Shown: positions 21,192-58,450 of the stretch, piece after piece
How positions within the stretch are numbered: position 1 is the stretch's first letter
Layout of the letters: every line of letters begins with the position of its first letter
Assembly (NCBI GenBank): GCA_030650795.1
Contig: JAUSDJ010000031.1
Span: 153,123 to 217,122 of the forward strand
Length of the DNA stretch: 64,000 bases
Source: Actinomycetota bacterium
Lineage (GTDB): Bacteria > Actinomycetota > Actinomycetes > S36-B12
Reading direction: 5' to 3'
Translations under genes and position numbers: made by a program
Notes under the pieces: model-generated
The model's database searches: none
What the model was told of the DNA's origin: nothing
What the model saw: only the letters and a program-made list of their open reading frames with translations

Positions 21192-21728
21192 CTCGCCTCC
21201 TCAAGGTCAGGCTACGCCACTGCATGAGTTCAAATCTGGATCTTTGCCGCAAAGTGGCTCGGACGGTGTTGAGCACCTGCATTTAGGAGATTAGCAATGC
21301 GAGCGGGACGAGGAGTTCTCCGTCTTGCGCGAACTGGGCGTGGCAAGCAGCCCTCATATCGACACGACGAAGTACTTCGGTATCGCCTTACCGAGATTGG
21401 GCTTCCTTGACGAGGGAGAATTGCCGCGTCAATTGTCCAGATCGTGGACGATGCTCAAGATTGCCGTCACATGGCGATGGCTGTAGAAATTCGAAGTCGT
21501 ACGGGGGCAATTGGTCGGCGAATCAGCTGACGCTATTCATGGATTTTGGCAGGCAGTTGAGCGAATACGGCGACCGAAGACTGCGTCCGCATGCTGCGTA
21601 CCACCAGGTGCGTGGACACTCGTGACGCCTAGGTCCATTTCGGACATTGCTCTGTGCCGCAGTCCATTGAGTCATCATTCTGACTAGCATGAGTGGCCTA
21701 CTGATTAGCTTAATTTGGAGGCCACCAT

Positions 21729-39697: not shown

Positions 39698-40816
39698 ATG
39701 AGCGAATTGCACGCGTTAGCGGAAGCGAAGACATCTCGCGCGGTCCCGCTATCAAGTGCGGCCACACCTCTGTGGCCTCGAGTCGGGCGGAAGGCGACCA
39801 CGTGGTTCGCCACCCGCCTGTATGCGCACGAGTGTGGCGTCGAGTCTCCCGGAGCGACGCCGCCAGAGGAACTGCCTCTTTGCTACGCGCCCGTGCAGAC
39901 CAGCAAGGGACGTCCACGCGCTCCGCGGATACCCCCGGAGTTGGCCGGATACCCGATCCAGGCACACTCCGGGCCGTATGCGTTCGAGCGTTCGCCGCAT
40001 CGCCTCGCCGAGACCACGGTGTTGCTCGCGCTGATCGTCCTACGGCGATCGTTGGGGCACACACGGCATCCATGGATCTGGGTGGCCGTCCGCCAGTTGA
40101 TGATCGTCGCACCCCTCGTCGCGGTCGCCGGGGCATCTGGCAACGCGGTGCTGGTCGCACAGGTGATTGTGGTTGCGAGCCTGGCCCGGATCGCGGCGCG
40201 CGCGTATCGTTTCCGACACTGGGCAGCGAGCTATCACAGGCGTGCGTGTCCTGCACCTGAACAGTTCGGCACACTCAGGGTGGTAGATCTCGCCGGGGCA
40301 AACGGCGCAGTTATAGAAGTCACACCGGTCTTGATCCTGGGCGCTGTCGTCTGGGTCATCGTCAGCCCGCGACTGGCATTGCTGCCAGTGTTCGTGTTCA
40401 CAGTCCTTATGGGCGTCCTGGTGACCTACGTCGTTTCTATCTGCCTGTTGCCTGTCCTAGCACGAATCGAGGCCGCCGATCATCCAGATGTGCGACCAGT
40501 ATTCATGCTGTCCATGACGTTCGTATTCGCCCTCGGGATGCTTGTCTTCTCGCCATCCAGCGTTCTGAGTGTGCCCGCACCGCTCCTCGAAGCCCTCCAG
40601 TGCCTGCCTTGGCTCCCGTGGATCTTCCTTCCCCTAAACGTCGGGACGCACACCGCGCCGGTCTGGACTCTCGGGGTGAGCGCGCTCCTTACCGTCGCCA
40701 GCTGCCTGGTCCTGTGGCATTTCGGTGCCATCGGGTCGCTCGACGAAGAAGACGACACTGACGACGAAGACACGCAGGATGACGAAGACGAAGGATCCCG
40801 GGGACGTAGACGATGA
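39698..40816 (+). CDS. polytopic membrane protein with poly-acidic C-terminal tail
   Basis: At least 6 hydrophobic helices from about aa 110. The tail is LDEEDDTDDEDTQDDEDEGSRGRRR. GC-rich third codon positions support this frame over the antisense ORF 39594-40274. Start is uncertain. Confidence 0.5.
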   Translation: MSELHALAEAKTSRAVPLSSAATPLWPRVGRKATTWFATRLYAHECGVESPGATPPEELPLCYAPVQTSKGRPRAPRIPPELAGYPIQAHSGPYAFERSPHRLAETTVLLALIVLRRSLGHTRHPWIWVAVRQLMIVAPLVAVAGASGNAVLVAQVIVVASLARIAARAYRFRHWAASYHRRACPAPEQFGTLRVVDLAGANGAVIEVTPVLILGAVVWVIVSPRLALLPVFVFTVLMGVLVTYVVSICLLPVLARIEAADHPDVRPVFMLSMTFVFALGMLVFSPSSVLSVPAPLLEALQCLPWLPWIFLPLNVGTHTAPVWTLGVSALLTVASCLVLWHFGAIGSLDEEDDTDDEDTQDDEDEGSRGRRR

Positions 40817-41466
40817 CAGCGGGCAACGTTCGGCCAGAGGGCACACGGCCGATCCTTCTTCTGGACCTAGACGAAGTGCTGTTCCCCTTCGCCGACGCGT
40901 ACGATCGATGGCTGGCATGCAGGCGGGGATACGGCCTCGACCCGGTGCTGAAGCGCGCGTACGACGTCGGCGCGGCAGCTGGATCAGGACACCGCGAGCT
41001 CGCCGTTCAGTTTGTGAACGACCCGGCCGTGATCGCCACGGTGCCGCCTCGAAGCAACGCACGCTCTGCGCTGCGCGTGTTGGAACAGACCTACACCCTG
41101 ATGGCCTGCACGAGTCGAAGGGAGGCTCTCGAAGGCGAGGCGACGCGAGCGTGGCTACGCCGCTATTTTCCGGAGGTCAACGAAGCACTGTTCACCTCCC
41201 AGGATCACTCGTCGCCGGTAAGGACGAAGGCGGCATTGGCCGAGGAGGTCGGCGCCGCCGCGCTAGTAGACGACACCATGCAGCACCTCGCGGATCTGCC
41301 TCCGACATGTGTCGGTCTGCTGCTCAAACGGCCGCCCGGCATGCAAAGTGAACCTGGTTCTCGCCACTGGGCAACAACAGTTAGAGTGCTGCTCGAACCG
41401 GGCCACAGGCCAGAACCAGCCTCCGGGGAGGCACGGGTATTGGCCGAGGAGGGAAGGAACCGATGA
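40813..41466 (+). CDS. HAD-superfamily hydrolase (phosphatase-like)
   Basis: ILLLDLDEVLFPF is HAD motif I (DxDx[TV]). ATGA overlap with the upstream gene. Confidence 0.55.
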   Translation: MTAGNVRPEGTRPILLLDLDEVLFPFADAYDRWLACRRGYGLDPVLKRAYDVGAAAGSGHRELAVQFVNDPAVIATVPPRSNARSALRVLEQTYTLMACTSRREALEGEATRAWLRRYFPEVNEALFTSQDHSSPVRTKAALAEEVGAAALVDDTMQHLADLPPTCVGLLLKRPPGMQSEPGSRHWATTVRVLLEPGHRPEPASGEARVLAEEGRNR

Positions 41467-44512: not shown

Positions 44513-45655
44513 ATGAAAGTCGTGCTCCACCCTGGCATGCCCAAAGCTGGCAGCACGACGATCCAAACCTACTTCCGAGCCCACGAGGACGAGCTCCGCT
44601 CCAGTGGCATTGGGTACATCCAGCCAGAGGGAGTCACTTCTGGGCTCCCAGCACAGGTCATCTCAAAGTTGGACGACCTCCTGGATGTCGATAATCCCAC
44701 TCATGTGGTCGTCTCCCACGAATCCCTTATCGAAATCGGCTCGGACACGCTTTACCCATTTCTCGACGAACTCCGTTCCCGCGACGTGACTATCGAGGTC
44801 GTCATCATCGTACGGCCGCTAGGCGAGTGGGCGGTGAGCAAAGAGAAACAGCGACTGAGGTCCCTGAAGGGGACCGCCTCTCCCAAGCGACCTGCCGTGG
44901 AGAAGTGGTTCAGCACCTGGATGGCGCCAGAGGCCGAGGATCGAATCGGGAGTCCCATCCGATTAGTGGACCTCCACGCGGCAGAAGGTCTGATTCCCGC
45001 ATTCATGAATTCGGCTGGCCTGCCACTGCCAGACAGCTGGCCTCAGGTCACATCGCTTGCCGTCAATCGGTCACCAGTTGAGCGGGATCTTGCCATCTAC
45101 CTCGTTCTCAATGACGCGATTCGCTGGGCTCAAGAGGAGTGGCCCGAGGACGAGCGAACATCGAACGGAAGGCATCTCCGAGAGATTCGTCAATTCATAG
45201 CGGAGATCCTGGCGTCCGGGGACCACCACCGCACGCCCCGCGAGCTCGGTCTCGATGAGGACCTGCGCAGCCGCCTTCTCGTGCACTTCTTCGATGACCT
45301 CGAAGCGACCCTTTCGGACCGACTGCAACAGCAGAAACCCGAAGCCGCCGAGCGAGTCCGCAAGCTCACCCAGGAGGCGCTTACTATCCTGCGCGCAGGA
45401 CCTAGGTCCGAACGCTATGTCAACGCTCGGGTGAAGAGTTTCCTGGCCGGTCTGGCCACACCCATAGCGGAATCCGAGGCCAGGTTCCGCACATGGACGG
45501 TGCAGAATCACGCGACTGAATTAGCCGCACTCATGCTCCCCGAACCGGTCAAGAAGAAGGGCGGAAAGCCAATGGCCCAAGTAGCCAAGGAAGGACCCGC
45601 GGCCGATTTGCGACATCGCCCAGCCTCGCAGAAGACTGGCTCCGCTAGCGCCTGA
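44513..45655 (+). CDS. sulfotransferase-fold-like P-loop protein
   Basis: MKVVLHPGMPKAGSTTIQ (PKxGST 5'-PSB-like loop), VVVSHESL, IIVRPLGEWAVSKEKQ (3'-PB-like RxxxxxxS). Paralog at 55342-56286. Confidence 0.4.
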   Translation: MKVVLHPGMPKAGSTTIQTYFRAHEDELRSSGIGYIQPEGVTSGLPAQVISKLDDLLDVDNPTHVVVSHESLIEIGSDTLYPFLDELRSRDVTIEVVIIVRPLGEWAVSKEKQRLRSLKGTASPKRPAVEKWFSTWMAPEAEDRIGSPIRLVDLHAAEGLIPAFMNSAGLPLPDSWPQVTSLAVNRSPVERDLAIYLVLNDAIRWAQEEWPEDERTSNGRHLREIRQFIAEILASGDHHRTPRELGLDEDLRSRLLVHFFDDLEATLSDRLQQQKPEAAERVRKLTQEALTILRAGPRSERYVNARVKSFLAGLATPIAESEARFRTWTVQNHATELAALMLPEPVKKKGGKPMAQVAKEGPAADLRHRPASQKTGSASA

Positions 45656-46361
45656 CTGTGATGTACTCGGACCGCACGTCGCCCGACGTCTTGCTGATCC
45701 GCTGAGCATCGACCGTCACATCTGTGAAGCCGTGCCGCCCGAGCAATTCACGGATCTCAAGCACGTTGGCGCCCGCAACCTCGATTAGGCAGGACTCGAC
45801 GCCCTTCAGAGTGGCTGAAGCTCCGCGCAGCACCTCGACCTCGTGACCCTCAACGTCGATCTTGAGGTACCGGGGGGCGGGCAGCCCGGACGCCACCATT
45901 TCATCAACCGTCGTGATAGGAACCTCGACGATCTGATCGTTGGCCTTCGTCCGCGCCTTCGTAGACGCGACCCTGGCCTTTCCGTAGTAGCTCTCGTGAC
46001 TGCCCACGAACAACTGTGCGATGCCAGGTTGCGAACCCACCGCTTTCGGCACGACGAGGACCTGATCTTCGAAACCGTTCTGGCGGATATTGGCGACCAA
46101 TGCCTTGCGCACATATGGATTCGGCTCGAAGGCGACAAGCCGGGATGGGTCGCCGCTCGCCTTCGCCGCGAGCAGCGTGAACTCGCCTACGTTGGCCCCG
46201 ATATCCCAGATCGGGCCTGCCTGCGCCGAACAGGCCAGGAACCAGTCGACGGTGAACGACTCCTTGGGTGATCGCAGATACGGTTCGCCGTCAGGGATCG
46301 TGGGTCGAATCATGTAGAACTTGTGATTTCCCACGCTGACGACAGCGAACTTCCTGCTCAT
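45645..46361 (-). CDS. FkbM family methyltransferase
   Basis: IWDIGANVGEFTLLAAK ... AFEPNPYVRKALVANIRQNGFEDQV ... LKIDVEGHEVEVLRGA. Start placed at MSRKF (46361), preceded by GGTGG. The ORF track extension to 46616 overlaps the upstream gene. Confidence 0.7.
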   Translation of the reverse strand: MSRKFAVVSVGNHKFYMIRPTIPDGEPYLRSPKESFTVDWFLACSAQAGPIWDIGANVGEFTLLAAKASGDPSRLVAFEPNPYVRKALVANIRQNGFEDQVLVVPKAVGSQPGIAQLFVGSHESYYGKARVASTKARTKANDQIVEVPITTVDEMVASGLPAPRYLKIDVEGHEVEVLRGASATLKGVESCLIEVAGANVLEIRELLGRHGFTDVTVDAQRISKTSGDVRSEYITVRR

Positions 46362-46456
46362 CGAACCACCCCACCCTGCACGTCCATAGGACGTCGCGAC
46401 GAACCGAACGCTATCCGACCGACCCCGGGTTAACGCGGCCGGAGCGCCACGGTCGG

Positions 46457-47428
46457 TCACGCAATCGACTGTATCGAGAACGGCAGCCCCGGATCTCGCT
46501 TCACGGTCTTGGTGTTTGCCGAGGCCAACGCCTCGGCCAACACCGAGAAGTGGCGGCTGAAAACGATGGCAGGGTTGCGGTAGTACGTCATCACAGGTGT
46601 TCGCGTATATAGGCATAGGTATGAGAACCCCCCATAGGTACCCTTAAAGGCTCGGGCACTTGCCAGCAACTGGATCTGGTCGGCGATGTTCGTACGCTCG
46701 CTCGCCGTGTCAGCAGTAGGCAGGTCGAGATTCGCGCAGATCTGGGAGAATGGTTCATCAACGCCGAGGTTCTTCGACGGTTTCGCGAACGGCCGCGAGT
46801 CTTCGAGTGTGTGCCGATTGACGATCGCCAGGACAGGTCCTGCGTCGCGAGCCTGTTTGCAGATCTCACTCACGCGTCGCATGTTTTCGGTGGTGGCTTT
46901 CATCTGCGCCCCGAACCAGAACTTCAGAATCACGTTATCCGTCCGCTCGACACGGACGACAGCCGCTCGCGGAAAGGTAAGTGCCCGGGATCCAAAGCGC
47001 CGGATCGCAACGTGCATGAGATCGGCGCTTACGACGTGACTGCCAGCCAGACCCGCTGATGAGATTAGTTGCCACTCCCAGTCACTTGTGCCCGTCTTGT
47101 GGTTCTTTGCCCGCAATCCGCCATCAATCAGACGCTGGGTATCTCGCGCGACATATTCTTCCGGGCTCACTACATCAAGGACGTCCACGTATTCGAACGG
47201 GATGCCGATAGCACGGTAGAGATCTGCAGTCCCGCCTCGGCTCATCACCACAACGCGATGGCCGTCGAGTGCTCCTGACGTGGCGAGTGTAGTTATTTGA
47301 GGTATCCAATAGAGGGTCTCGAATCCGACCTCGCCGAGAAAGGGGCCGAACACCACAGTCGCGGCCTTCGCTTGAGGAATTCCGAATAGAGCGGTCAACT
47401 GAGAGGCGACGGACGGGTACTTCATCAT
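46457..47428 (-). CDS. stand-alone GPxxGExGFE module protein (paralog of the C-modules of the giant proteins)
   Basis: VVFGPFLGEVGFETLYWIPQI, VVVMSRGGTADLY and FKGTYGGFSYLCLYTRTPV align with the C-terminal modules of 31994 and 36970. Confidence 0.55.
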   Translation of the reverse strand: MMKYPSVASQLTALFGIPQAKAATVVFGPFLGEVGFETLYWIPQITTLATSGALDGHRVVVMSRGGTADLYRAIGIPFEYVDVLDVVSPEEYVARDTQRLIDGGLRAKNHKTGTSDWEWQLISSAGLAGSHVVSADLMHVAIRRFGSRALTFPRAAVVRVERTDNVILKFWFGAQMKATTENMRRVSEICKQARDAGPVLAIVNRHTLEDSRPFAKPSKNLGVDEPFSQICANLDLPTADTASERTNIADQIQLLASARAFKGTYGGFSYLCLYTRTPVMTYYRNPAIVFSRHFSVLAEALASANTKTVKRDPGLPFSIQSIA

Positions 47429-47714
47429 GCCCCCTCTGGCTCGGCGTCAGCATTCGGGGAACCCGTCCATCTGCAGACTCACTGTCGCTTGGCAACGGAC
47501 TCTATCAAGCAAGGCGTGGCGAAAGGCGAACTATGGAGAGGCCCGACGACGCCTGACCGGGGACGAAGGACCAGCGGCACAGCCCCGCCGCCGTAGCGCG
47601 AATTCACTCCTTACCACTGACCGCGAAACCCGGAAGCAATCTTGTGCGGCTAGGGTGTGCTTGTCGCAATAAGCGAGCTTGCTCGGCACTTGCCGACAGC
47701 CCAAAGGAGGCATC

Positions 47715-48764
47715 GTGGGTTTCATTGAGGACCTGAAGACTGAGGGCGACGGCGCCTTTCATGTGATTGCTGAGATCGGACACAACCATCAGGGCAGTCT
47801 TGAAAAGTGCATGGCGCTCTTTGATGCCGCCAAGCGTGCTGGCGCGCATTCCGTGAAGTTGCAGAAGCGCGACAACAAATCCCTTTACACGCCTTCAGTT
47901 TTCAACGAGACATATAACAGCACCAATGCCTACGCCGATACCTATGGAGCACACCGCGAGGCACTGGAATTCGGCAAAGACGAGTATTACGCGCTCAAGA
48001 AGTACGCCGAATCACTCGACATCATGTTCTGGTCTACCGCCTTCGACATCCCTAGCGTGGACTTCCTCGTCGATGTTGGCATCCCCGCGATCAAGATTGC
48101 TTCTGGCGACATCCGCAGCCACCACCTGCAGGAGTACGCGGCATCCACCGGGCTGCCTGTCGTGTTCAGCACTGGCGGAGCGACGATGCTGCAGGTACAG
48201 GCAGCACACGATGTGGTCTCAGCCCACACAAGCGAGTTCGCGATTCTCCAATGCATCGCTTCATACCCGGCACCATTTGACCAGTTGAATCTGAATGTCA
48301 TTCCGTCCTACATGCAGCATTTTCCCGATGCGGTCATCGGCTATTCCGGGCATGAGAATGGCATCGCCATGTCCAATGTCGCCTACGTCTTGGGCGCGCG
48401 TGTCATCGAGAAGCACTTCACCCTCGATCGCACAATGAAGGGCACCGATCACGCGTTCAGCCTCGAGCCCGAGGGCATGCGCAAGCTCGTTCGCGATCTT
48501 GAGCGCACGCGCCTGGCGATGGGGTCAAGTGTCAAGGAGCCCCTTGACCTCGAACTGCCGGCCGTGACCAAGATGGCGAAGAAAGCCGTGGCCGCACGCG
48601 ATCTCAAGGCAGGCGAGATCCTGCATCTGTCTGACATCGAGTTCCGCTCCCCTGGCAATGGCATTGCGCCGGACGAGGCGCACCGGATGTACGGACGCGT
48701 CTTGGCGCGCGATGTCGTGTGCTACGAGGACCTCAACTTCGTCGATTTCATCTCTGCTGACTGA
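47715..48764 (+). CDS. NeuB-family ulosonic/nonulosonic acid synthase (PEP-condensing) with C-terminal SAF domain
   Basis: AAAGGAGG 5 nt before GTG 47715. VIAEIGHNHQGSLEKCMALFDAAKRAGAHSVKLQKR is the NeuB signature. C-terminal VAARDLKAGEIL is SAF/antifreeze-like. Substrate specificity is not assignable. Confidence 0.85.
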   Translation: MGFIEDLKTEGDGAFHVIAEIGHNHQGSLEKCMALFDAAKRAGAHSVKLQKRDNKSLYTPSVFNETYNSTNAYADTYGAHREALEFGKDEYYALKKYAESLDIMFWSTAFDIPSVDFLVDVGIPAIKIASGDIRSHHLQEYAASTGLPVVFSTGGATMLQVQAAHDVVSAHTSEFAILQCIASYPAPFDQLNLNVIPSYMQHFPDAVIGYSGHENGIAMSNVAYVLGARVIEKHFTLDRTMKGTDHAFSLEPEGMRKLVRDLERTRLAMGSSVKEPLDLELPAVTKMAKKAVAARDLKAGEILHLSDIEFRSPGNGIAPDEAHRMYGRVLARDVVCYEDLNFVDFISAD

Positions 48765-49556
48765 ATGGACAGACTTGATGGAAAATCGGCCGTCGTCATC
48801 GGAGCCGATGGAAAGTTAGGTCCGATCTGGATCGAGGCGTTGTTCGAGGCCGGCGCAACCGTAACGGCGCTCTGTGAGCCAGGTCGGGCACCGAGTGATC
48901 GACTGAAGTCACTGATCGATACCGCTAGCGGTCAGATTCGGCTTGGCTCCTGCGACGTCTCGGACCCTGATTCAGTCCAGTCAGCGCGCGACGCCGTTAT
49001 CGCCGACGTCGGAGCCATCGATGTCCTTGTCGTCAACGCCGGGATCGACACCCCACCCGGTGCCACCGCCACGTGGGCCTTGGGCGAGTTTCCAGTCGCG
49101 TTGATGCGCAGAATCCTCGAAGTGAACGTCATCGGGGCCTTCAATGTCATGCAGGTCTTCAGCACCTCCATGCTCCCTGGGGGCTCGGTGATTGCCGTTG
49201 GCTCCATGTATGGCTCCAGCGCCCCTATGGCCACTTTGTATGACCACATCGAGACCGAGCCTGCCTTTCTCAAGCCGCCTGCCTATGGCGCCTCCAAGTC
49301 CGCGCTCAGCAATCTCGTCAACTGGTTGGCGGTCCATTGGGCGCCAACCGGATTGCGCTTCAACACCCTCAGTCCAGGCGGAGTGGCCGGCGGTCAGGAT
49401 CCCGAGTTCATCCGCAAGTTTAGCGCAACGGTTCCCATGCATCGACTGTGCGAGCCCGAAGAGTTGAAGGGCCCTCTGCTCTTCCTCGCGTCTGATGCCT
49501 CGTCCTACATCACGGGCTCCGAACTCCTGGTGGATGGAGGTCGACACGCATGGTGA
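48765..49556 (+). CDS. short-chain dehydrogenase/reductase (SDR)
   Basis: VVIGADGKLGP cofactor loop, NAGI, YGASK (YxxxK). Confidence 0.8.
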   Translation: MDRLDGKSAVVIGADGKLGPIWIEALFEAGATVTALCEPGRAPSDRLKSLIDTASGQIRLGSCDVSDPDSVQSARDAVIADVGAIDVLVVNAGIDTPPGATATWALGEFPVALMRRILEVNVIGAFNVMQVFSTSMLPGGSVIAVGSMYGSSAPMATLYDHIETEPAFLKPPAYGASKSALSNLVNWLAVHWAPTGLRFNTLSPGGVAGGQDPEFIRKFSATVPMHRLCEPEELKGPLLFLASDASSYITGSELLVDGGRHAW

Positions 49557-51007
49557 CCACGACCCTGATCGGCTGCAACATCATCGACGGCGATGACACT
49601 GTCGCCGCGAACGCCCAACTTGTTGATCGCTTCGGCCCGGCAGATGGCACTCTCGCTGGACAGCGAGTCGAATCCGGTGCTGCAGAAATCGATCAGGCGC
49701 TGGCTGCCGCGCGCGCCGGTCAGGCTGCTTGGGCCGCCACCACACCGGTATTCCGTGGTGAGTTGCTGCGCGCTATCGCGCGCGAGCTCGACGCTCGGAT
49801 CGAGACGCTGGCGCACCTCGTGCATCTGGAGACTGGCAAGAGCTTGGCCATGGCGCGCGGCGAGGTGCGTGGTGCAATTGAGCTCGCCTATTTCACAGCA
49901 GCAGAGGGCCGGCGCTTCTACGGCCGCACCACCACCAGTGCGATACCTGGCAAACAAGTCTCAACGTGGCGAGCACCCATCGGCGTAGGAGCACTCATCG
50001 CCGCGAGCAATACGCCGGTTCCCAACTACGCCTGGAAGGTGTTTCCAGCGCTGCTGGCTGGAAATTCAGTAATCCTCAAGCCCAGCGAGCACACCCCCTT
50101 CTCCGCGGTGGAGTTCGTTCGGATCTGCCTTGACTGCGGAGTCCCGGCCTCGGCCCTGCAACTGATTCAGGGAAGCGGCCCGGGCACCGGCTCGACGTTG
50201 GTTGAGTCCAAAATCGAATTGGTCTCTTTCACTGGGAGTGCGGCTGTTGGGCGCGGCATTCTTGCCAGCGCAGGCGGCCGCCTCATTCGTGCAGCCGTCG
50301 AACTTGGCGGCAAGAACGCGATGATCGTGTGCGACGACGCTGACCTGTCCGCTGCAGCCGACGCTGCTGTGGCCTCGGCGTTCTCCAATGCTGGCCAAAG
50401 GTGCGCCGCCACCAGCCGCATCATCGTTATGGGCAGTGTGTACGAGGAGTTCACCAGACTGCTGCTCGAACGAACCTCGGCCCTGACCTTGCACGGACAA
50501 GACGACTCGGTTGGTCCGGTCATCGGCGAAATCGCCGTCGCGCGCATCACCGCTGCCGTCTCGGGCGCGGCCGAGCGGGGCGCAACGCTTCTCGCTGGTG
50601 GACCAGATTCAGTCCCCGGCTCACTTGCAGGTGGCTGCTTTGTCGCTCCCACCATCCTGGCCGATGTGCCGGCGGACGATCCGATCTCGGTCGAAGAGGT
50701 GTTCGGGCCGGTGGCCAATCTCTACCGAGTTGGCAGTTTTGCCGAGGCGATTGCCCTGGCTGCGCAAACTGAGTACGGACTCACAGGTGCGATCTGGACC
50801 GACTCTGTGGATCGCGCATTTCACTTCACTTCAACCGCACGGGTCGGCATGGCTGTAGTGAATGGGCCGACATTCGGCAGTGAGCCGCACATGCCTTTCG
50901 GCGGCTTCGGCTCGTCTGGCAATGGCACCCGCGAATGCGGCACAGAGGTCTTCGACTTCTATACCGAACTGCGCACAGTGGCAGTGCTCACTCGCGAGCC
51001 GAGATGA
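49550..51007 (+). CDS. NAD(P)-dependent aldehyde dehydrogenase
   Basis: VELGGKNAMIV, FSNAGQRCAATSR (catalytic Cys), EEVFGPV. Overlaps the SDR stop. Confidence 0.85.
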   Translation: MVTTTLIGCNIIDGDDTVAANAQLVDRFGPADGTLAGQRVESGAAEIDQALAAARAGQAAWAATTPVFRGELLRAIARELDARIETLAHLVHLETGKSLAMARGEVRGAIELAYFTAAEGRRFYGRTTTSAIPGKQVSTWRAPIGVGALIAASNTPVPNYAWKVFPALLAGNSVILKPSEHTPFSAVEFVRICLDCGVPASALQLIQGSGPGTGSTLVESKIELVSFTGSAAVGRGILASAGGRLIRAAVELGGKNAMIVCDDADLSAAADAAVASAFSNAGQRCAATSRIIVMGSVYEEFTRLLLERTSALTLHGQDDSVGPVIGEIAVARITAAVSGAAERGATLLAGGPDSVPGSLAGGCFVAPTILADVPADDPISVEEVFGPVANLYRVGSFAEAIALAAQTEYGLTGAIWTDSVDRAFHFTSTARVGMAVVNGPTFGSEPHMPFGGFGSSGNGTRECGTEVFDFYTELRTVAVLTREPR

Positions 51008-51765
51008 CGGCAGTCGCCCTCATTCCCGCTCGCTCTGGCAGCAAGCGCATCCCCGGAAAGAACACGCGACTGCTGGCTGGGCATCCGGTTATCGCGTACA
51101 CGATTGCCAGTGCGATCTCATCAGGAGTGTTCGACCGCGTGATTGTCAGCACCGATGATGCCCCGACCGCCGCTGTGGCGACGTACTACGGAGCCGAGGC
51201 GCCCTTCCTGCGCCCGGCTGAACTGTCCCAGTCTGACTCCGCAGACATCCTCTGGGTACTCCACGCACTCGACTGGCTGGACAACGAGGGTGAACTGCCA
51301 GATGTCTGCGCGCTCTTGCGGCCAACCAGCCCACTTCGGCAGCCTGCGTCCATTCGCCAGGCGATGGATCAATTCACCCAGTCCGATGGCTATGACTCGA
51401 TTCGTGCGGTCACTCGCTGCGAGCAGCACCCGGCGAAAATGTGGGTGCTCGATGAGGATCGCCTCGGCATGAGCCCACTTCTGCCGGTATTGGAGGATGC
51501 CGTTCCGGCGCACAGTCGGCCATACGACACCCTCCCCGAGGTCTATGTACAGGATGCGAGCCTTGAGATCTTCTGGACCCGTACCGCACGCGAGCTCGGT
51601 TCGATTGCCGGTACGCGAATCATGGCTTGGATCACCCCAAGCCCCGAGGGCATGGATCTCAACTTCCCGGCAGACTGGACTCTGCTCGCCGATCTCGTTG
51701 CCCGAGAACCTTCAGTCCTGCCGACAATCCTGCAACCGCCGTATCAAGATCAGGGGATGAACTAG
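51004..51765 (+). CDS. CMP-ulosonic acid synthetase (acylneuraminate cytidylyltransferase family, NeuA/KdsB-like)
   Basis: ALIPARSGSKRIPGKN signature. ATGA overlap with the ALDH stop. The ORF track start at 50935 is rejected. Confidence 0.8.
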   Translation: MTAVALIPARSGSKRIPGKNTRLLAGHPVIAYTIASAISSGVFDRVIVSTDDAPTAAVATYYGAEAPFLRPAELSQSDSADILWVLHALDWLDNEGELPDVCALLRPTSPLRQPASIRQAMDQFTQSDGYDSIRAVTRCEQHPAKMWVLDEDRLGMSPLLPVLEDAVPAHSRPYDTLPEVYVQDASLEIFWTRTARELGSIAGTRIMAWITPSPEGMDLNFPADWTLLADLVAREPSVLPTILQPPYQDQGMN

Positions 51766-53657
51766 TGCCGACCGCCGATGTTTGCTTTGTGCCACAGACC
51801 TTTCTGTCTCAAGTCCTCGCGGCACCTGCCCCACTTACACAACGCGTCACTGCGTTCGCAGAGCTCTCGCGCATCAACACTCTGGGCATGATCATGATGG
51901 CCGGGTCAGGGCACATCGGCTCAAGCTTCAGCTCTGTCGACATCATGTCGTGGGTGCTTGCTGGCGAGCTCGCGCATCACACTGAACAACCAAATCCTGG
52001 GCGCTTCTTCTCGTCGAAAGGACACGATGCGCCAGCCATGTATGCGGTGAACATCGGCCTGGGTCGAATCGATGAAAGCCTCCGCACCAAGTTGCGGCGC
52101 CTCGATGGTCTGCCCGGCCACCCCGACACCTCCATTCCTTCCATGATCACGAACACCGGCTCGCTGGGCATGGGCATCTCCAAGGCCAAGGGCTTCGTCT
52201 TCGCCGACCGCCTCAAGGGCGCAGAACTGCCTACATATGTACTCCTGGGCGATGGTGAGCTGCAAGAAGGGCAGATCTACGAATCCCTCGCAGGCGCAGT
52301 CAATGCCGGCTACTCATCGATCACCGCGATCATCGACTGGAATCGGATTCAGTCGGACACCTGGGTCAGCAAGGTCTCCGACCTTGGCGACATCGAAGCG
52401 AAGTTCGCGTCCTTCGGCTGGAACGTTCGCGCCTGCGATGGCAACGACGTCGAAGCAATCGCCAGTGCCCTCGCTGAACTGCGCGATGCACAAGGACCAG
52501 GCGTGCTCATTGCTCACACAGTGAAGGGCAAGGGTGTCTCATTCATGGAGGATTTCGCTCCGGACGGGGATCTCTACGCCTTCCACTCCGGCGCACCCGC
52601 CATTCCGGTGTACCTGGAGGCATTGGCCGAACTGCAAGCTCGCGCAGGAGTCCTCGTTGGCGAACTGGGCCTGGGTGAAGTGTCCTACGAGACTGTTCTG
52701 CTTGATCGCCCGGTCGCTCCAAAGCCGACCACGCTCGTGGAATCCTGGTCCAACGCCCTCGGTGCCATGGCCGCACGCCGCGCTGATGTCGTGGTGCTGG
52801 ATGGCGACCTGCGCAAGGATCTCGGGCTGGTGCAATTCGCGGCCGAATACCCGGAGCGATTCATCGAGTGCGGCATCGCCGAACAGGACATGGTCTCGCA
52901 GGCCGGCGCGCTGGCGCTGAGCGGGCTTCTTCCGATCTCCTGCTCGTTTGCCTGCTTCCTCACCACCCGACCGCACGAGCAGATCCTGAACAACGCCTCT
53001 GAAGGCACGCACCTGCTCTATGTCGGCGCACTGGCCGGCATCATTCCGGCCGGACCAGGCCACAGCCACCAAGCCGTGACCGACGTTGCCGTGATGAATG
53101 CACTCAACGGCATGCTGATCGCCGAGCCATTCCATCCCTCCCAGATGTCCTCGATCGTCGCGACATTGACTGATGTGCATGACGGACCTGCTTACCTGCG
53201 CATCTGCAGCGTGCCACTGCCATTCGAGGAGATCCCAGAGCCAGACCTTCTCGACATCGGCAAGGGTCAGGTGCTGCGCGAAGGAAGCGATGTGGTCCTG
53301 TTTGCTTCGTCAGCGCCGCTCGTGCTGCAGGCCCTTCGGGCAAGCGATGCGCTCAAGGAGCTTGGGATCTCGGCAACGGTGGCCGCAACTCCTTGGCTGA
53401 ATCGCATGGACCCCGACTGGATGGCCTCTCTAGTGTCGCCTGGCAAGCCACTTGTGGTCATCGAGAACCATGTGCGTTCCGGCGGCTTCGGCTCCACTGT
53501 TGCGGGCGCGCTCGTGCAAGCAGGCATTGCAGTGCCATGGCTTCATGTGTGCGTCGAAGGCAAGCAGGCTTGCGGCACTAACGACGAAGCCTTGGCCTTC
53601 CATCGGCTCGATGCTGCGTCAATCACCAGCCGTGTGCAGGCCTTCGTCAACGCGTAG
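51765..53657 (+). CDS. transketolase-family ThDP enzyme (N- and C-terminal subunits fused)
   Basis: GSGHIGSSFSSVDIMSW and GDGELQEGQIYE (ThDP motif) in the N-half; ECGIAEQDMVS in the pyrimidine-binding half. GTG 51765 overlaps the upstream TAG by 1 nt. Confidence 0.8.
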   Translation: MPTADVCFVPQTFLSQVLAAPAPLTQRVTAFAELSRINTLGMIMMAGSGHIGSSFSSVDIMSWVLAGELAHHTEQPNPGRFFSSKGHDAPAMYAVNIGLGRIDESLRTKLRRLDGLPGHPDTSIPSMITNTGSLGMGISKAKGFVFADRLKGAELPTYVLLGDGELQEGQIYESLAGAVNAGYSSITAIIDWNRIQSDTWVSKVSDLGDIEAKFASFGWNVRACDGNDVEAIASALAELRDAQGPGVLIAHTVKGKGVSFMEDFAPDGDLYAFHSGAPAIPVYLEALAELQARAGVLVGELGLGEVSYETVLLDRPVAPKPTTLVESWSNALGAMAARRADVVVLDGDLRKDLGLVQFAAEYPERFIECGIAEQDMVSQAGALALSGLLPISCSFACFLTTRPHEQILNNASEGTHLLYVGALAGIIPAGPGHSHQAVTDVAVMNALNGMLIAEPFHPSQMSSIVATLTDVHDGPAYLRICSVPLPFEEIPEPDLLDIGKGQVLREGSDVVLFASSAPLVLQALRASDALKELGISATVAATPWLNRMDPDWMASLVSPGKPLVVIENHVRSGGFGSTVAGALVQAGIAVPWLHVCVEGKQACGTNDEALAFHRLDAASITSRVQAFVNA

Positions 53658-53676
53658 GTCAGATACCGTCAAGCAC

Positions 53677-55335
53677 ATGCGAGAACGCGTGCGCGCACTC
53701 CTGCGCCCACTTGCGCGCAGGCACGCGAGTCGCCGCTACCTCCCGAACTGGTCAGCCCTCGGACTGCCAGCGCACGAAAGTCCTAACGGAAGCCGCGTGC
53801 TCCTGGCGACCATGGCAGGAGGAAATCTGCAGGCCATGAATGTCGAACGCCTGCTCGCAGCGGCACTCACCGTGCGAGGCCATCACGTCGATGCAGTGCT
53901 GTGCGACGGAGCTCTTCCGGCCTGCATCGAATGCAGCTACCTCGTGATCGCACCGAGCAGGATGGCATCGGCCGGACCGTCAGAATCAATGTGCAGGCAA
54001 TGCACGGCAACAGGCGTGCGCGCATTGGAGTCCGCCGGGGCCAGCTTGCACTCTCTCTCAAAGTGGATCCTGCCCGAGGATCACGCTGAGGCCGAGCGAC
54101 TCAGCGAGTCAGCGTTGGACGTGGCATCACTGACTCTCGACGACATCGCCATCGGGCAGCATGCCCGAGCGGGAGCCCTTCGGTTCGAGGCGCGGGCAGT
54201 GCTCGCTGATGGGCCCGAGAGTCAACGGATCCTCTTGCGCTATCTGCGCGCTGCGGTGCTGACCTGTCGAGCAACGCAAAGGATGATTGAAGACCTCGCC
54301 CCAGATGTCATCGTGCTGCAGCACGGCATCTATGTGCCTCAGGGCGTCGTCGTCGAGACCGCCAAAACGCAAGGAGTTCGGGTTGTCACCTGGACTTCCG
54401 GCTACCCGGAATCATCGATGCTCTTCGCCCATGGTGATACCTACCACCGAACAATGCTGGCCGAGACTCCTGCCGACTGGGCAGACGTTGAGTGGACTCC
54501 GCAGCGTGCGCAGGCAACGCGCGAATACCTGGACTCACGTCGCACAGGATCACGCGATTGGATTCGGTTCGGCTCGGCGCAAGCCTCTGCCTTGGCAGAG
54601 TCATTGCCCCAAGTCGTGCTGGATCCAAGACCATTGGTGCTGGTGCTGCCCAATGTCTCGTGGGATGCCCAGATCCATTTTGAGGGGCGCGCCTTCGCAT
54701 CGCAGACCGACTGGCTTCTGCACACCATCGAGTGGGCACGCACCAGGCCAGATCTCCAAATCGTCATTCGTGCGCATCCGGGCGAGGTGACCGGATTCCT
54801 GCCAGCGCAGGATCCACTTCGCGAAATCCTGCCGATCGCTCACCTCCCAGAGAACGTGAGCTTCGTGGATTCCACTTCTCCAACATCCACCTATGAACTT
54901 GTCGATCTGGCAAACGTCGTCATTGTGTATGGCACAAAAGTTGGAGTCGAGGCCTTGGCTCAAGGTCGGCCGGTGATCACCGTGGGTGAAGCGTGGATCC
55001 GAGGCAAGGAACTCTCTATCGACGTGGAGACATCAACTGAGTACCAAAGGGTCCTTGATCAACTTCCCTTCGCTGACGGGATTGCCCCCGAGCACACTGA
55101 TCGTGCGCTTCGATACGCGCATCACCTGTTCCTGCGGCGCATGATTCCGGTGCGCGCACTCCAACGGGTTACCCATCCCGGACCAGGCCGCCCGCTGTAC
55201 TGGGCGGTCGTGCCCGCGCGCCAATCGCTTGCTCCAGAGCAGGATACTGGTCTGGATGCCGTCTGCAAAGGCATCGTCGAAGGTACCTCGTTCGTTCTTG
55301 ACTCGGCTTCTCCTCCACAGCCCCCAGCGGCATGA
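53677..55335 (+). CDS. KpsC/KpsS-like (Capsule_synth-like) putative ulosonic-acid transferase
   Basis: LVLVLPNVSWDAQIHF, IVIRAHPGEV and VVIVYGTKVGVEALAQGRPVI resemble the LQVxxDxQ / HP / NSxxGxEAL pattern of KpsC/KpsS as I recall it. Start is at MRERV, just after the transketolase stop. Confidence 0.5.
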   Translation: MRERVRALLRPLARRHASRRYLPNWSALGLPAHESPNGSRVLLATMAGGNLQAMNVERLLAAALTVRGHHVDAVLCDGALPACIECSYLVIAPSRMASAGPSESMCRQCTATGVRALESAGASLHSLSKWILPEDHAEAERLSESALDVASLTLDDIAIGQHARAGALRFEARAVLADGPESQRILLRYLRAAVLTCRATQRMIEDLAPDVIVLQHGIYVPQGVVVETAKTQGVRVVTWTSGYPESSMLFAHGDTYHRTMLAETPADWADVEWTPQRAQATREYLDSRRTGSRDWIRFGSAQASALAESLPQVVLDPRPLVLVLPNVSWDAQIHFEGRAFASQTDWLLHTIEWARTRPDLQIVIRAHPGEVTGFLPAQDPLREILPIAHLPENVSFVDSTSPTSTYELVDLANVVIVYGTKVGVEALAQGRPVITVGEAWIRGKELSIDVETSTEYQRVLDQLPFADGIAPEHTDRALRYAHHLFLRRMIPVRALQRVTHPGPGRPLYWAVVPARQSLAPEQDTGLDAVCKGIVEGTSFVLDSASPPQPPAA

Positions 55336-55341
55336 ACCTGG

Positions 55342-56286
55342 TCAGTCAGTGGCTGCGACTTCAGCGGCCTTGATTTTTCGCGCCCTTCGGGATGCGGCAC
55401 GGGTGCCAACAAGTGCTAGCACCTCACTCCGCAGCGGTTCTTCCAATGTCTCTTCCAATGCCAACCGAAGCCTGCCCGCAGCCTTGTTCGCTTCGCGCAC
55501 TGCCTTGGGGCTGGGCCGCTCGTCAACTGGCCGATCCCATTGTTTGGCGAGAGCGATGATCCGCTTGATGTAGTCGTAGGACTCGGCGTCGCTCCGAATC
55601 GAATCAAGGCCTTGTCTGGCACTCAGTAAGTCGCCCAATTTTCTCGTGATTTCGATGAGATCGAGCGCCCGAGTGGAGACGCTCCGATTTGACCACATCC
55701 CAAGCGCCTGCGGATCAAACTCCACGTGCGCCAGGCCCAATGCCGCGAGGAATCGCTGAGCGAGCGGCTCCTCGCCGACCAGCGGAAGCAGAACAATGTC
55801 ACGCTCTGCGCTTTGCTCGTAGGCCCACGTGGACCACACATTGAGCCAGACATCGAGATCCCCAACATCGAGCTGGACATCGAGCTGCTCCGATTTCTGC
55901 TGGGAAGGCCGCGCGGGCAAAGCCTGCGCGCGTTGATTCATCCGCGAGAGGGTCCAATCCTCGAGTAGTCGCAGGACGAATACGACAGTGATCGAATCGA
56001 AGTGATGCGCGATTCCGTTCATGAGTCCATCGATACCTGCGGGATCCAAAGTGCAGAGGAACTCTGATGAGAGGATCACAACTTCAGCCGGATCTTCGCC
56101 GATGATGTCCGGCCAGAGTCGCGGGCGTTGCCCACTCGCCAGAGTCTGCACAAGTTTGGTGGGACGAAGTCGCACGAAGCTCACATCATGCGCTGCCAGG
56201 ATTTCAGTTGAGCGTGCGAATCCGTCCTGCAATGACGTCGATCCACACTTCGGCAGACCCACATGCAGGATGAGTCGCTTAGGCAC
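55342..56286 (-). CDS. sulfotransferase-fold-like P-loop protein (paralog of 44513-45655)
   Basis: MPKRLILHVGLPKCGSTSLQ, VVILSSEFL, VFVLRLLEDWTLSRMNQ. Confidence 0.4.
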   Translation of the reverse strand: MPKRLILHVGLPKCGSTSLQDGFARSTEILAAHDVSFVRLRPTKLVQTLASGQRPRLWPDIIGEDPAEVVILSSEFLCTLDPAGIDGLMNGIAHHFDSITVVFVLRLLEDWTLSRMNQRAQALPARPSQQKSEQLDVQLDVGDLDVWLNVWSTWAYEQSAERDIVLLPLVGEEPLAQRFLAALGLAHVEFDPQALGMWSNRSVSTRALDLIEITRKLGDLLSARQGLDSIRSDAESYDYIKRIIALAKQWDRPVDERPSPKAVREANKAAGRLRLALEETLEEPLRSEVLALVGTRAASRRARKIKAAEVAATD

Positions 56287-56303
56287 AGTTCAGCGATCCG
56301 AAC

Positions 56304-58331: not shown

Positions 58332-58450
58332 GAGCTCACCCCACTCTGTAGGGGTGAATAGGACAACACCGACCTTGAAGTGTGTATAAAAAAAAGTCTG
58401 AAACATTTCTGATATGCTTTCACGCAGGTTCTTTACACAGGAGATGCCCG

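Follow-up and report, generated by a model that had tools for sequence, protein, structure and literature searches.

A conserved gene cassette for a probable ulosonic acid, with a transketolase-like enzyme, in an uncultured Actinomycetota bacterium

A six-gene operon on the forward strand of DNA from an uncultured Actinomycetota bacterium (positions 47715-55335 of the window, the 64-kb stretch analysed here) encodes a NeuB-like ulosonate synthase, a classical SDR, an aldehyde dehydrogenase (ALDH), a CMP-ulosonate synthetase, a fused transketolase and a KpsC/KpsS-like glycosyltransferase. Its gene families, operon structure, conservation and the residue patterns of its synthase and transketolase support the description of a non-canonical operon given in an earlier note on this DNA; no paper on the gene set, nor on its route, was found in the searchable literature. 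We tentatively propose that the pathway begins with synthesis of a Kdn-type nonulosonic acid, whose side chain would then be shortened to give a seven-carbon dicarboxylic sugar for CMP activation and polymerisation.

Operon layout and conservation across phyla

The operon opens with the synthase gene (47715..48764; Pfam NeuB and SAF, 249.6 bits), of the putative 9-phosphate-synthase (NANS/Kdn-9-P synthase) type, which starts at GTG 47715 behind the ribosome-binding site AAAGGAGG. It is followed on the same strand by genes for the SDR (48765..49556; adh_short_C2, 132.4 bits), the ALDH (49550..51007; Aldedh, 446.8 bits), a NeuA/PseF-type cytidylyltransferase or CMP-transferase (51004..51765; CTP_transf_3, 72.8 bits), the transketolase (51765..53657; Transketolase_N, Transket_pyr and Transketolase_C at 85.5, 80.7 and 61.5 bits) and the KpsC/S-like protein (53677..55335; Capsule_synth, 36.9 bits over partial coverage, gathering score 20). 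The six family assignments of the earlier note all hold in Pfam, including the fusion of both transketolase halves in one 630-aa protein, where the three transketolase domains are found; the note counted seven genes, of which six were found, and its own title names six functions. The junctions and overlaps it reported are exact, and the genes are translationally coupled at them: TGAATG links synthase and SDR (48762-48767), ATGGTGA is shared by SDR and ALDH (49550-49556), ATGA by ALDH and CMP-transferase (51004-51007), and TAGTG by CMP-transferase and transketolase (51763-51767). The KpsC/S-like gene starts at ATG 53677, 19 bases past the transketolase stop; an upstream TTG of the long open reading frame was rejected as its start. 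A hairpin and T-run directly past the last gene (55351..55379, forward strand) is the sole terminator-like site on this strand within 47200-56400 in a consensus scan, and counts as weak evidence because such sites are fewer than in shuffles. The six genes appear to be co-transcribed.

A search for the same arrangement in other genomes, as the earlier note had suggested, returned 48 related loci with enough flank, spanning more than 12 phyla, in which cassette members were sought within 10 kb. Most share the order synthase-(phosphatase)-SDR-ALDH-CMP-transferase-transketolase-(phosphatase)-KpsC/S-like. The SDR and the ALDH are each present in 44 of the 48, the transketolase in 41 and the CMP-transferase, mostly adjoining the transketolase, in 40; all four occur together in 33. 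Within the 10 kb, the SDR was not found in four Anaerolineales loci, the ALDH in L007, L031, L045 and L074, or the transketolase in L019, L030, L048 and L071, where SDR and ALDH are present. KpsC/S-like homologs occupy the equivalent position in 21 of the 48 loci, and the CMP-transferase and transketolase often form a separate adjacent pair, apart from the other genes in planctomycete loci. The layout was also met independently in further loci that we inspected. This arrangement is far beyond chance, and the transketolase, ALDH and SDR, their order conserved across these phyla, belong integrally to the cassette, as the earlier note held, rather than being passengers.

Synthase, condensing substrate and phosphatases

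The synthase scores 272 against the NCBIfam NeuB model (threshold 399.65) and 211 against that for PseI (threshold 340.25), and so falls short of both. In alignment with NmNeuB, Arg314 is replaced by Ser312 and Glu134 by Asp132; the aspartate is present in all 84 family members, none of which has Arg at position 312. In BLASTP, the match to human NANS (sequence entered by hand) is gap-free, with 221 bits and 36% identity over 319 residues, versus 132 bits for NmNeuB. Asp at the Glu134 site has been reported for archaeal and eukaryotic synthases, and the site has been placed near the ManNAc-6-P phosphate (PMC8208679). By these features the synthase resembles the animal/Kdn type, which uses sugar 6-phosphates. 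It shares with animal NANS and NanS both the aspartate and the lack of an Arg314 equivalent, but it is bacterial and lies within an operon of tailoring enzymes, with ManNAc-6-P supply genes absent nearby.

A Pfam scan of roughly 50 open reading frames, spanning the entire window, gave zero matches to the Epimerase_2, sugar 4,6-dehydratase, DegT and acetyltransferase families, which confirms the absence of 2-epimerase, 4,6-dehydratase, DegT aminotransferase and N-acetyltransferase noted previously. The sole Formyl_trans_N match in the window is the housekeeping purN, adjoining purH. The established Kdn route from Man-6-P, which has three enzymes (PMC6200933), needs no precursor genes and so matches their absence. 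In Bacteroides thetaiotaomicron and Prymnesium parvum this route comprises a Kdn-9-P synthase, a Kdn-9-P phosphatase and a CMP-Kdn synthetase (PMC6200933). The cassette similarly combines a NeuB-family synthase of the phosphorylated-substrate type with a NeuA/PseF-type cytidylyltransferase, would have no need of amino-sugar precursor genes, and in 17 related loci has a YrbI-type phosphatase beside the synthase. Unlike the Kdn pathway, it adds a conserved SDR, ALDH and transketolase-like enzyme and a dedicated KpsC/S-like transferase, and the window's cassette is without a phosphatase. Since the synthase lies below both thresholds and the operon is non-canonical, the product is probably a CMP-activated acidic sugar other than Neu5Ac, Leg or Pse, in keeping with the earlier suggestion of one unlike the described nonulosonic acids.

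A phosphatase is present in 33 of the 48 related loci, as a YrbI/KdsC-type enzyme directly after the synthase in 17 and as another HAD type after the transketolase in 16 further loci; the two never co-occur. These dedicated phosphatases make a common sugar 6-phosphate, for which no special supply is required, the most likely substrate for condensation. A phosphatase gene is absent from the six genes of the window's own cassette. A HAD-superfamily candidate lies 7 kb upstream (40813..41466, forward strand) and is a possible substitute; its translation shows a motif I, DLDEV, and a DD motif further on, and it has a weak Pfam NT5C match. A 47% identical homolog is found in L001, the nearest complete relative, which is also without either phosphatase type of the related cassettes.

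Enzymes for tailoring, activation and transfer

The nearest solved structure to the cassette transketolase is human transketolase, with DXP synthases clearly weaker; the cassette enzyme also matches the DXP synthase N-terminal domain model weakly, and scores below the NCBIfam transketolase threshold (363.6 versus 488). Like true transketolases (human TKT, E. coli TktA, yeast TKL1) and the split bacterial ones, it has the three-domain fold, the ThDP and Mg motifs and the catalytic histidines, and the catalytic and cofactor residues H37, H77, H110, H258, D155, N185 and E366 (human numbering) show no variation within the cassette family. In contrast, five residues, kept in every true transketolase as contacts to the sugar phosphate and the donor C4 hydroxyl, are invariably replaced. 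Human R318/S345/H416/D424/R474 become V/D/L/P/S in the window; across the family, R318 is replaced by V or I, S345 by D, H416 by L or Y, D424 by P, and R474 by S, T or I, at a spacing of 27/71/8/51 versus 27/71/8/50 in the human enzyme. This pattern recurs in 51 transketolases from cassettes and in 120 homologs drawn independently from databases, and argues that the enzyme lacks a sugar-phosphate site and does not act on sugar phosphates; with that site gone, it cannot be the pentose-phosphate enzyme. We propose instead that it cleaves a terminal two-carbon ketol.

Among solved structures, the SDR family profile has as its best named relatives galactitol dehydrogenase, gluconate 5-dehydrogenase, mannitol 2-dehydrogenase, polyol dehydrogenase, sorbitol dehydrogenase and KduD. 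The galactitol, mannitol, sorbitol and polyol enzymes and gluconate 5-dehydrogenase convert -CHOH-CH2OH to -CO-CH2OH, a terminal ketol such as transketolases require in their donors, and we propose that the SDR acts on the side chain of the sugar, oxidising its penultimate hydroxyl. The ALDH family retains its catalytic motifs (ELGGK in 59 and GQRC in 60 of 60 members); its best NCBIfam families, 2,5-dioxovalerate and alpha-ketoglutaric semialdehyde dehydrogenases, are both far below threshold and provide weak evidence for action on the terminal aldehyde of a 2-keto acid. We propose that it turns a new C7 aldehyde into a carboxylate. The similarities of both SDR and ALDH are to broad families, far below any curated threshold. 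The CMP-transferase scores 129.6 bits against NCBIfam PseF (threshold 205.7) and at most 42 bits against KdsB models, and is by these scores of the nonulosonate rather than the KdsB type.

The KpsC/S-like protein, whose roughly 550 residues include a long N-terminal half rich in cysteine, is a candidate transferase for the CMP-sugar. It matches E. coli KpsC (6mgd) at E = 0.016 in phmmer; its family profile did not match KpsC in the PDB. It shares with the KpsC and KpsS beta-Kdo transferases its Capsule_synth membership and an H-P motif, here within an invariant R-x-H-P-x-E, but is very distant from these Gram-negative proteins and has a Gram-positive host. Upstream, also on the forward strand, lie two large GT-B-like paralogs sharing 31-33% identity: a two-domain protein (31994..34906; weak Glyco_transf_9 match; homologs in 32 related loci) and a second protein (36970..39627; weak MGDG_synth match; homologs in 36, that of L001 being 60% identical), the latter with a weak profile link, at a probability of 40%, to the H-P region of the KpsC/S-like family. 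Between them are a cytidylyltransferase-methyltransferase fusion (34903..36015; Pfam CTP_transf_like and Methyltransf_11; ~50% identical homologs in 19 related loci) and a GT1-like glycosyltransferase (36008..36964; weak Glyco_trans_1_4 match; ~40% identical homologs in 22), whose homologs typically lie immediately upstream of the synthase gene. An FkbM-family methyltransferase on the reverse strand (45645..46616; Pfam Methyltransf_21, TIGR01444) has homologs in 14 related loci; in L002, L003 and L021 an FkbM gene adjoins that of the synthase.

Proposed route and alternatives

We infer the substrate, step order, trimming chemistry and product of the pathway as follows. The synthase would form a Kdn-like core by condensing PEP and a common hexose 6-phosphate, for which mannose 6-phosphate is the simplest candidate, and a phosphatase would release the free nonulosonic acid. 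The SDR would then oxidise the penultimate (C8) hydroxyl to create a terminal ketol; the C6/C7 configuration of Kdn and Neu5Ac, read from C9, is D-threo, as transketolase donors require. Cleavage between C7 and C8 by the transketolase-like enzyme would remove the two-carbon ketol and leave a C7 aldehyde on the pyranose ring, which the ALDH would convert to a carboxylate. The resulting 3-deoxy-hept-2-ulosaric acid would be activated by the cytidylyltransferase and added to a polymer by the KpsC/S-like enzyme, perhaps together with both large GT-B-like proteins. A precedent is the Shewanella Kdo8N pathway, in which, as outlined in PMC5125639 (citing Gattis et al. 2013), KdnB oxidises the tail of the free ulosonic acid before activation; unlike the route proposed here, that outline has an iron alcohol dehydrogenase (KdnB) and an aminotransferase (KdnA), an unshortened chain and an amine product. 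Against the cleavage step stand the released two-carbon fragment, which is without an explained fate, and the loss of the usual phosphate-binding acceptor site.

Tailoring after condensation nevertheless fits the evidence better than the earlier proposal that an aldose is assembled by ketol transfer before it joins PEP, which found no support. Making or tailoring an unusual aldose for the NeuB-like enzyme would account for the canonical precursor enzymes missing from the whole window and for the conservation of transketolase, SDR and ALDH alongside the synthase. Such a role is unlikely, however: transketolases make ketoses and ALDHs destroy aldehydes, so neither would give the free aldose needed, and the cassette has no isomerase or kinase. 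Moreover, the synthase type and co-occurring phosphatases indicate a phosphorylated aldose, all the transketolase phosphate-binding residues are lost, and a central metabolite such as Man-6-P requires no supply pathway. It is similarly improbable that the chain is never shortened, the SDR and ALDH oxidising the terminal CH2OH to yield a nine-carbon diacid and the transketolase serving separately, e.g. in another carbon-carbon reaction. The four transketolase-less loci, which have synthase, phosphatase, SDR and ALDH, suggest that the last two might function with no cleavage step, provided that the missing gene is not located elsewhere in the genome, and the frequent pairing of CMP-transferase and transketolase, set apart in planctomycetes, points the same way. 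Yet the SDR's closest named relatives oxidise secondary (penultimate) rather than primary hydroxyls, and a transketolase conserved in so many loci would be left roleless; the CMP-transferase is also missing from two of the four loci, so the pair may simply lie elsewhere.

ThDP enzymes add two-carbon units in branched-sugar pathways, and the altered substrate site, which is not that of a standard transketolase, together with the weak DXP synthase matches, would suit a carboligase or decarboxylase that adds such a unit to an SDR-made keto or aldehyde group, giving a branched or extended ulosonic acid. We consider this quite doubtful, as the ALDH would have no obvious role, the catalytic histidines typical of transketolases are all kept, and true transketolases are the nearest solved structures. 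That three unrelated metabolic genes were inserted by chance into an ordinary Kdn/Neu5Ac-type operon is scarcely credible; each does come from a large housekeeping superfamily, but the gene order and the overlaps between stop and start codons, shared by most of the 48 loci, contradict it, as does a transketolase unfit for the pentose-phosphate pathway.

The product predicted by trimming of a Kdn-type acid, in which a carboxylate replaces the side chain, is a sugar of the same type as the Dha (3-deoxy-D-lyxo-hept-2-ulosaric acid) found in plant rhamnogalacturonan II. NeuB-type enzymes set C4 opposite to that of Kdo or Dha, so the predicted product would be an isomer of Dha rather than Dha itself. 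How Dha is made, and in which nucleotide form, is not yet known (PMC12168206). Overall, the cassette would supply a CMP-activated, nitrogen-free ulosonic acid that is built into a cell-wall or surface glycopolymer.

A six-gene cassette conserved across bacterial phyla

The operon at 47715-55335 on the forward strand was described in an earlier note as comprising seven genes; gene boundaries read from the sequence give six, and the description is otherwise borne out in its coordinates, its families and its fused transketolase. The NeuB-like synthase gene (47715-48764) has a GTG start four bases 3' of AAAGGAGG and meets an SDR gene (48765-49556) at a TGAATG junction. The aldehyde dehydrogenase (ALDH; 49550-51007), cytidylyltransferase (51004-51765) and transketolase-family (51765-53657) genes follow with ATGGTGA, ATGA and TAGTG overlaps, respectively, and a Capsule_synth-family gene, described here as KpsC/S-like (53677-55335), opens with an ATG 19 bases past the transketolase stop. 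All six families are supported by Pfam, and the 630-aa transketolase features all three transketolase domains. Directly after the last stop lies a terminator-like hairpin (55351-55379, forward strand), a weak consensus match and the sole one on that strand in the region. The GC content of the operon (0.61-0.62) is the same as that of its surroundings, which rules out a horizontally acquired island by composition. Approximately 50 ORFs were called across the window and scanned against Pfam; none is a UDP-GlcNAc 2-epimerase, sugar 4,6-dehydratase, DegT-type aminotransferase or acetyltransferase, in agreement with the earlier observation that the canonical precursor enzymes are absent from the window.

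Among homologs of the synthase, a few are close (91% and 69-72% identity), and a very large group lies at 53-60%. The same gene neighbors were found in four homolog contexts, namely a 3.46-Mb genome and Acidimicrobiales, Gemmatales and Vampirovibrio MAGs. A scan of one genome per species, in which the window's own species was not among the genomes returned, yielded 80 loci with synthases 51-59% identical, distributed throughout Planctomycetota, Vampirovibrionia and other Cyanobacteriota, Gemmatimonadota, Acidobacteriota, Actinomycetota, Chloroflexota, Methylomirabilota, Pseudomonadota, Bacteroidota, Verrucomicrobiota, Bdellovibrionota, Desulfobacterota-type lineages, Elusimicrobiota and others. 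Components were counted by tblastn with the window proteins in the 48 loci having at least 7 kb upstream and at least 8.5 kb downstream. The SDR and the ALDH were each detected in 44/48 loci, the transketolase in 41, the cytidylyltransferase in 40 and the KpsC/S-like protein in 21, while 33 of the 48 feature SDR, ALDH, cytidylyltransferase and transketolase together. The usual order is synthase-(phosphatase)-SDR-ALDH-cytidylyltransferase-transketolase-(phosphatase)-KpsC/S-like, and a search begun from the transketolase recovered the same gene set around it. A close relative (L088, 87% identity) carries the identical six genes, with a right-hand flank that matches up to sucD. The cassette is common in uncultured and environmental bacteria, and its cultured carriers include Tistlia consotensis, Pedobacter superstes and Paucidesulfovibrio longus, in which the order is synthase-SDR-ALDH-transketolase.

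The arrangement that the earlier note proposed to look for in other genomes is thus found, with its order kept, in many phyla. Its recurrence with the same neighbors removes the explanation that the transketolase, ALDH and SDR genes are unrelated passengers, and their recurrence in the 48-locus set places all three in the pathway. Exceptions do occur: the SDR is missing in four Anaerolineales loci, the ALDH in four loci, and the transketolase in four loci that retain SDR and ALDH. Two of these transketolase-less loci also lack the cytidylyltransferase, so the usual pair may sit elsewhere in the genome. Gene content at two loci did not resolve the exceptions; L021 features unrelated extended-SDR sugar-nucleotide genes, and L071 (Ferrovibrio) a second NeuB and an amino-sugar set. 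In the latter, a second NeuB-family gene, a PIG-L deacetylase, a DegT aminotransferase and a formyltransferase-like gene (3651-4796 and 18275-20151) surround the transketolase-less version of the cassette, and the locus appears to contain two interleaved ulosonic-acid pathways. That the cassette comprises a conserved, uncharacterized pathway to a CMP-ulosonic acid, with the three enzymes as integral members, is much more secure than the specific reaction scheme proposed below.

The wider glycopolymer locus and its surroundings

The KpsC/S-like protein matches Pfam Capsule_synth at 36.9 bits (gathering score 20) over profile positions 145-275 of 310, and its homologs in the nearest complete relative (L001) and in two further cassette loci (L005 and L088) bear the same precomputed match. 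Against the solved KpsC structure 6mgd, phmmer returned E = 0.016, and the H-P motif is present; a family profile of the protein searched among solved structures gave no match to KpsC and a single chance match otherwise. Its single-sequence structure model (pLDDT 33.5) was too low in confidence to use.

Several genes upstream of the cassette have homologs in the related loci. Two large paralogous proteins of 970 aa (31994-34906) and 885 aa (36970-39627), 31-33% identical to each other, have homologs in 32 and 36 related loci, respectively. Neither belongs to a Pfam family at normal thresholds; their GT-B matches (MGDG_synth, Glyco_transf_9) are weak, as is a resemblance to the H-P region of the KpsC/S-like family. 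They may be the polymerizing transferases. Also recurrent are a cytidylyltransferase-methyltransferase fusion (34903-36015; approximately 50% identical, 19 loci), a GT1-like protein (36008-36964; 22 loci), two proteins without a Pfam family (42783-44360, 18 loci; 46457-47428, 14 loci) and an FkbM methyltransferase (45645-46616; 14 loci). As these upstream genes recur, the functional unit is probably a glycopolymer locus of approximately 24 kb (approximately 31.0-55.3 kb), with the six-gene sugar cassette at its right end. The fusion at 34903-36015 joins a TagD/CCT-like cytidylyltransferase to a SAM methyltransferase; the Gemmatales locus L003 encodes the two parts as individual genes. The fusion protein could produce a methylated head group in CDP-activated form.

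Sulfotransferase genes or genes of PAPS synthesis (CysH-like; CysN/C-like with APS kinase) adjoin the cassette in planctomycete and Vampirovibrio loci, at 3009-4133 and 11699-12886 in L003, 16745-19581 in L005, and 2923-4086 and 11349-12824 in L007, which suggests that the polymer is sulfated in these lineages. Genes of the WcbI and GSCFA families are found beside or inside the cassette of the closest relatives (L088, 3906-5823; L001, 14132-16053; L087, 3104-3943), and in L001 they sit between the cytidylyltransferase and the transketolase. No WcbI or GSCFA homolog was found in the window, so its sugar probably lacks one modification that the relatives have.

Elsewhere, the polysaccharide genes of the window include those for GT2 and GT4 transferases, for a UDP-glucose/GDP-mannose dehydrogenase, for an HldE-like kinase-cytidylyltransferase and for a tyrosine-kinase/phosphatase fusion; the housekeeping genes purN, purH, folD, sucC and sucD are present too, as are DUF4012 and DUF6350 genes. 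By its purH homologs, the best of them 94% identical and located on a metagenome contig, the organism falls within uncultured Actinomycetota. A separate sugar-activation set lies on the reverse strand at 3366-6605, comprising an NTP_transferase, a zinc alcohol dehydrogenase and an HldE-like fusion of PfkB kinase and cytidylyltransferase; it is approximately 42 kb away from the operon, and no link to the cassette was found. The region 13806-23438 looks like a c-di-GMP-linked exopolysaccharide module: two ODP (di-iron, metallo-beta-lactamase-like) sensors fused to GGDEF domains (13806-15836, which also features a receiver domain, and 21729-23438) enclose a GT4 gene and a GT2 protein of 960 aa that contains HEAT repeats (15833-18715). 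Convergent with the operon, a 314-aa gene (55342-56286, reverse strand) ends 6 bases past it and is kept in L088 (65% identity). Its product carries a P-loop-like motif, GLPKCGSTS, close to the N-terminus, which raised the idea of a sulfotransferase; this was rejected, as Pfam returned no family for the protein even at E = 5. Further downstream, an AbiEi antitoxin gene (58382-59278) is followed by a C-terminal AbiEii toxin fragment (59513-59890; profile positions 114-219 of 238), which together resemble an eroded type IV toxin-antitoxin pair; in L088 nothing of this kind is inserted between the DUF6350 and GGDEF-EAL genes.

A probable phosphorylated-substrate synthase and an altered transketolase

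The synthase comprises a NeuB TIM-barrel domain and an SAF domain by Pfam, and its His/Glu/Lys/Ser metal and PEP positions are invariant in 84 sequences. It scores 272 bits against the NeuB model TIGR03569 and 211 bits against the PseI model TIGR03586, below the respective thresholds of 399.65 (equivalog) and 340.25, and Pfam detects no PseB/C/H/G-type genes (dehydratase, aminotransferase, acetyltransferase) in the window. Arg314 of the Neisseria meningitidis enzyme (NmNeuB), which contacts the N-acetyl group, aligns to Ser312 of the window synthase, the column having been marked with the R314 mutant entries 4ipi and 4ipj; Arg occupies this position in 0/84 family members. This arginine is essential for activity in bacterial NeuB (PMC8208679). 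NmNeuB Glu134 is replaced by Asp132, invariant in 84/84 family members; E134D is the state of archaeal and eukaryotic synthases in a large survey, and residue 134 is located near the ManNAc-6-P phosphate (PMC8208679). In BLASTP the synthase is 36% identical to human NANS (221 bits, gap-free over 319 residues), a figure that is a lead and not a database result, and it scores 132 bits against NmNeuB. As judged from its sequence, the synthase is of the 9-phosphate-synthase, phosphorylated-substrate type, closer to NANS than to bacterial NeuB.

A dedicated phosphatase of either of two types is found in 33/48 loci. A YrbI/KdsC-type phosphatase directly follows the synthase in 17, and a different HAD phosphatase follows the transketolase in 16 others, the two never occurring together; among solved structures, the YrbI-type protein has matches in KdsC and Kdn-9-P phosphatase. 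Both types are missing from the window and L001. These two alone share a candidate HAD-like phosphatase with a DLDEV motif (40813-41466; 47% identity), 7 kb upstream of the cassette, which may be a third, non-orthologous substitute for the sugar-phosphate phosphatase of other cassettes. The cytidylyltransferase matches Pfam CTP_transf_3 at 72.8 bits and the PseF model at 129.6 bits (threshold 205.7), with KdsB models at no more than 42 bits; these scores assign it to the nonulosonate (NeuA/PseF/LegF) type, not the Kdo type. The known Kdn route starts at mannose 6-phosphate and needs only a synthase, a phosphatase and a cytidylyltransferase (PMC6200933); a route from mannose 6-phosphate requires none of the canonical precursor genes, which would explain their absence.

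The nearest solved structure to the transketolase-like enzyme is human transketolase, and its best NCBIfam transketolase model, NF004559, scores 363.6 bits, below the threshold of 488. In human numbering, the catalytic residues H37, H77, H110 and H258, together with the Mg ligands D155 and N185 and the cofactor-activating residue E366, are invariant in 51 cassette sequences and in a second set of 121 sequences. The substrate-binding residues are replaced. R318, S345, H416 and R474 form the substrate phosphate site of every true transketolase, and D424 is the Asp that reads the donor C4 hydroxyl; these roles are established from the human, E. coli and yeast enzymes. In the window protein R318 is Val (mostly Val or Ile across the family, also Ser, Ala, Gln, Leu and Cys), S345 is Asp (invariant), H416 is Leu (Leu or Tyr, one Phe), D424 is Pro (invariant) and R474 is Ser (Ser, Thr or Ile). 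Throughout the family, Arg is absent from the R318 and R474 columns, and His from the H416 column. The spacing of these positions (27, 71, 8 and 51 in the window protein, 27, 71, 8 and 50 in the human enzyme) indicates that the transketolase alignment is sound, and the same signature occurs in every one of 120 independent database homologs. The family divides into two subtypes (L/S and Y/I), and the phosphate site is gone in both. We looked for conserved new basic residues able to bind a carboxylate and found nothing convincing in the transketolase. Going by these substitutions, the enzyme cannot be a pentose-phosphate transketolase, and it probably neither forms nor consumes sugar phosphates as a normal transketolase would.

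A profile of 20 cassette SDRs searched against solved structures placed galactitol dehydrogenase, gluconate 5-dehydrogenase, mannitol 2-dehydrogenase, a polyol dehydrogenase, sorbitol dehydrogenase and KduD as the top named relatives, behind one unnamed structure. Such enzymes oxidize the hydroxyl adjoining a terminal CH2OH to generate a CH2OH-CO- ketol, the group that a transketolase donor must have. The ALDH retains its catalytic motifs, and its best NCBIfam families are the 2,5-dioxovalerate and alpha-ketoglutaric semialdehyde dehydrogenases, which oxidize the terminal aldehyde of a 2-keto acid. The similarity scores of both proteins fall far below curated thresholds, and these likenesses are no more than suggestive.

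A proposed side-chain trimming pathway

The earlier note envisaged a new sugar whose aldose is assembled by ketol transfer before condensation with PEP. A new sugar is indeed probable, and the three enzymes do belong to its pathway; it is the order of events that we would revise, since they more likely act after condensation than before. In the scheme that we consider most likely, each enzyme is used once. The synthase would condense a hexose 6-phosphate with PEP to a nonulosonate 9-phosphate, a phosphatase would release the free nonulosonic acid, and the SDR would oxidize C8. The transketolase-like enzyme would then take off C8-C9 as ThDP-bound glycolaldehyde, leaving a C7 aldehyde on the pyranose ring, which the ALDH would convert to a C7 carboxylate. 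The resulting 3-deoxy-hept-2-ulosaric acid would be activated by the cytidylyltransferase and transferred by the KpsC/S-like enzyme.

Kdn and Neu5Ac, viewed from the C9 end, have a D-threo configuration at C7 and C6, as transketolase donors require, and this established stereochemistry counts in favor of trimming. Loss of the Asp for the donor C4 hydroxyl fits a substrate in which the corresponding oxygen (O6) lies in a ring. KdnB of the Kdo8N pathway provides a precedent for oxidizing a free ulosonic acid at its tail ahead of activation (PMC5125639). Against the fit, the usual acceptor site is gone, so the scheme leaves the fate of the two-carbon fragment unexplained, and we know of no glycan structure from any cassette carrier. 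We advance the scheme as a whole tentatively, with confidence somewhat short of even. A fuller claim seems to us less likely than not: that the cassette is the first route for making a CMP-activated heptulosaric (dicarboxylic) sugar, in which a nonulosonic acid loses its last two carbons in a transketolase-type step. That step would be a reaction new for the transketolase family, the product would represent a class of surface sugar not seen before in bacteria and widespread among those of soil and freshwater, and the route would be a template for the biosynthesis of plant Dha.

We file the cassette as a form of CMP-ulosonic acid biosynthesis, a known kind of system. Its core works like the Kdn/9-phosphate route, whereas for its tailoring part we found no described counterpart. 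If the trimming scheme is right, the predicted product is the same kind of sugar as Dha, the 3-deoxy-D-lyxo-hept-2-ulosaric acid of plant rhamnogalacturonan II. It would not be Dha itself, as NeuB-type enzymes set C4 opposite to that in Dha. How Dha is made and what its nucleotide form is have yet to be established (PMC12168206). No paper on this gene set or on bacterial ulosaric-acid biosynthesis was found in the searchable full-text literature, which omits most subscription journals, so an earlier description is possible.

Nonulosonic and related acidic sugars influence the binding of cations, phages, toxins and host receptors to bacterial surfaces, and to our knowledge only a handful of biosynthetic routes to them have been described. 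The availability of cultured carriers opens the question to direct test. Should trimming prove true, bacterial glycobiology would gain a new sugar class, enzymology a transketolase whose substrate is a sugar acid without phosphate, and the origin of heptulosaric acids such as plant Dha a concrete hypothesis.
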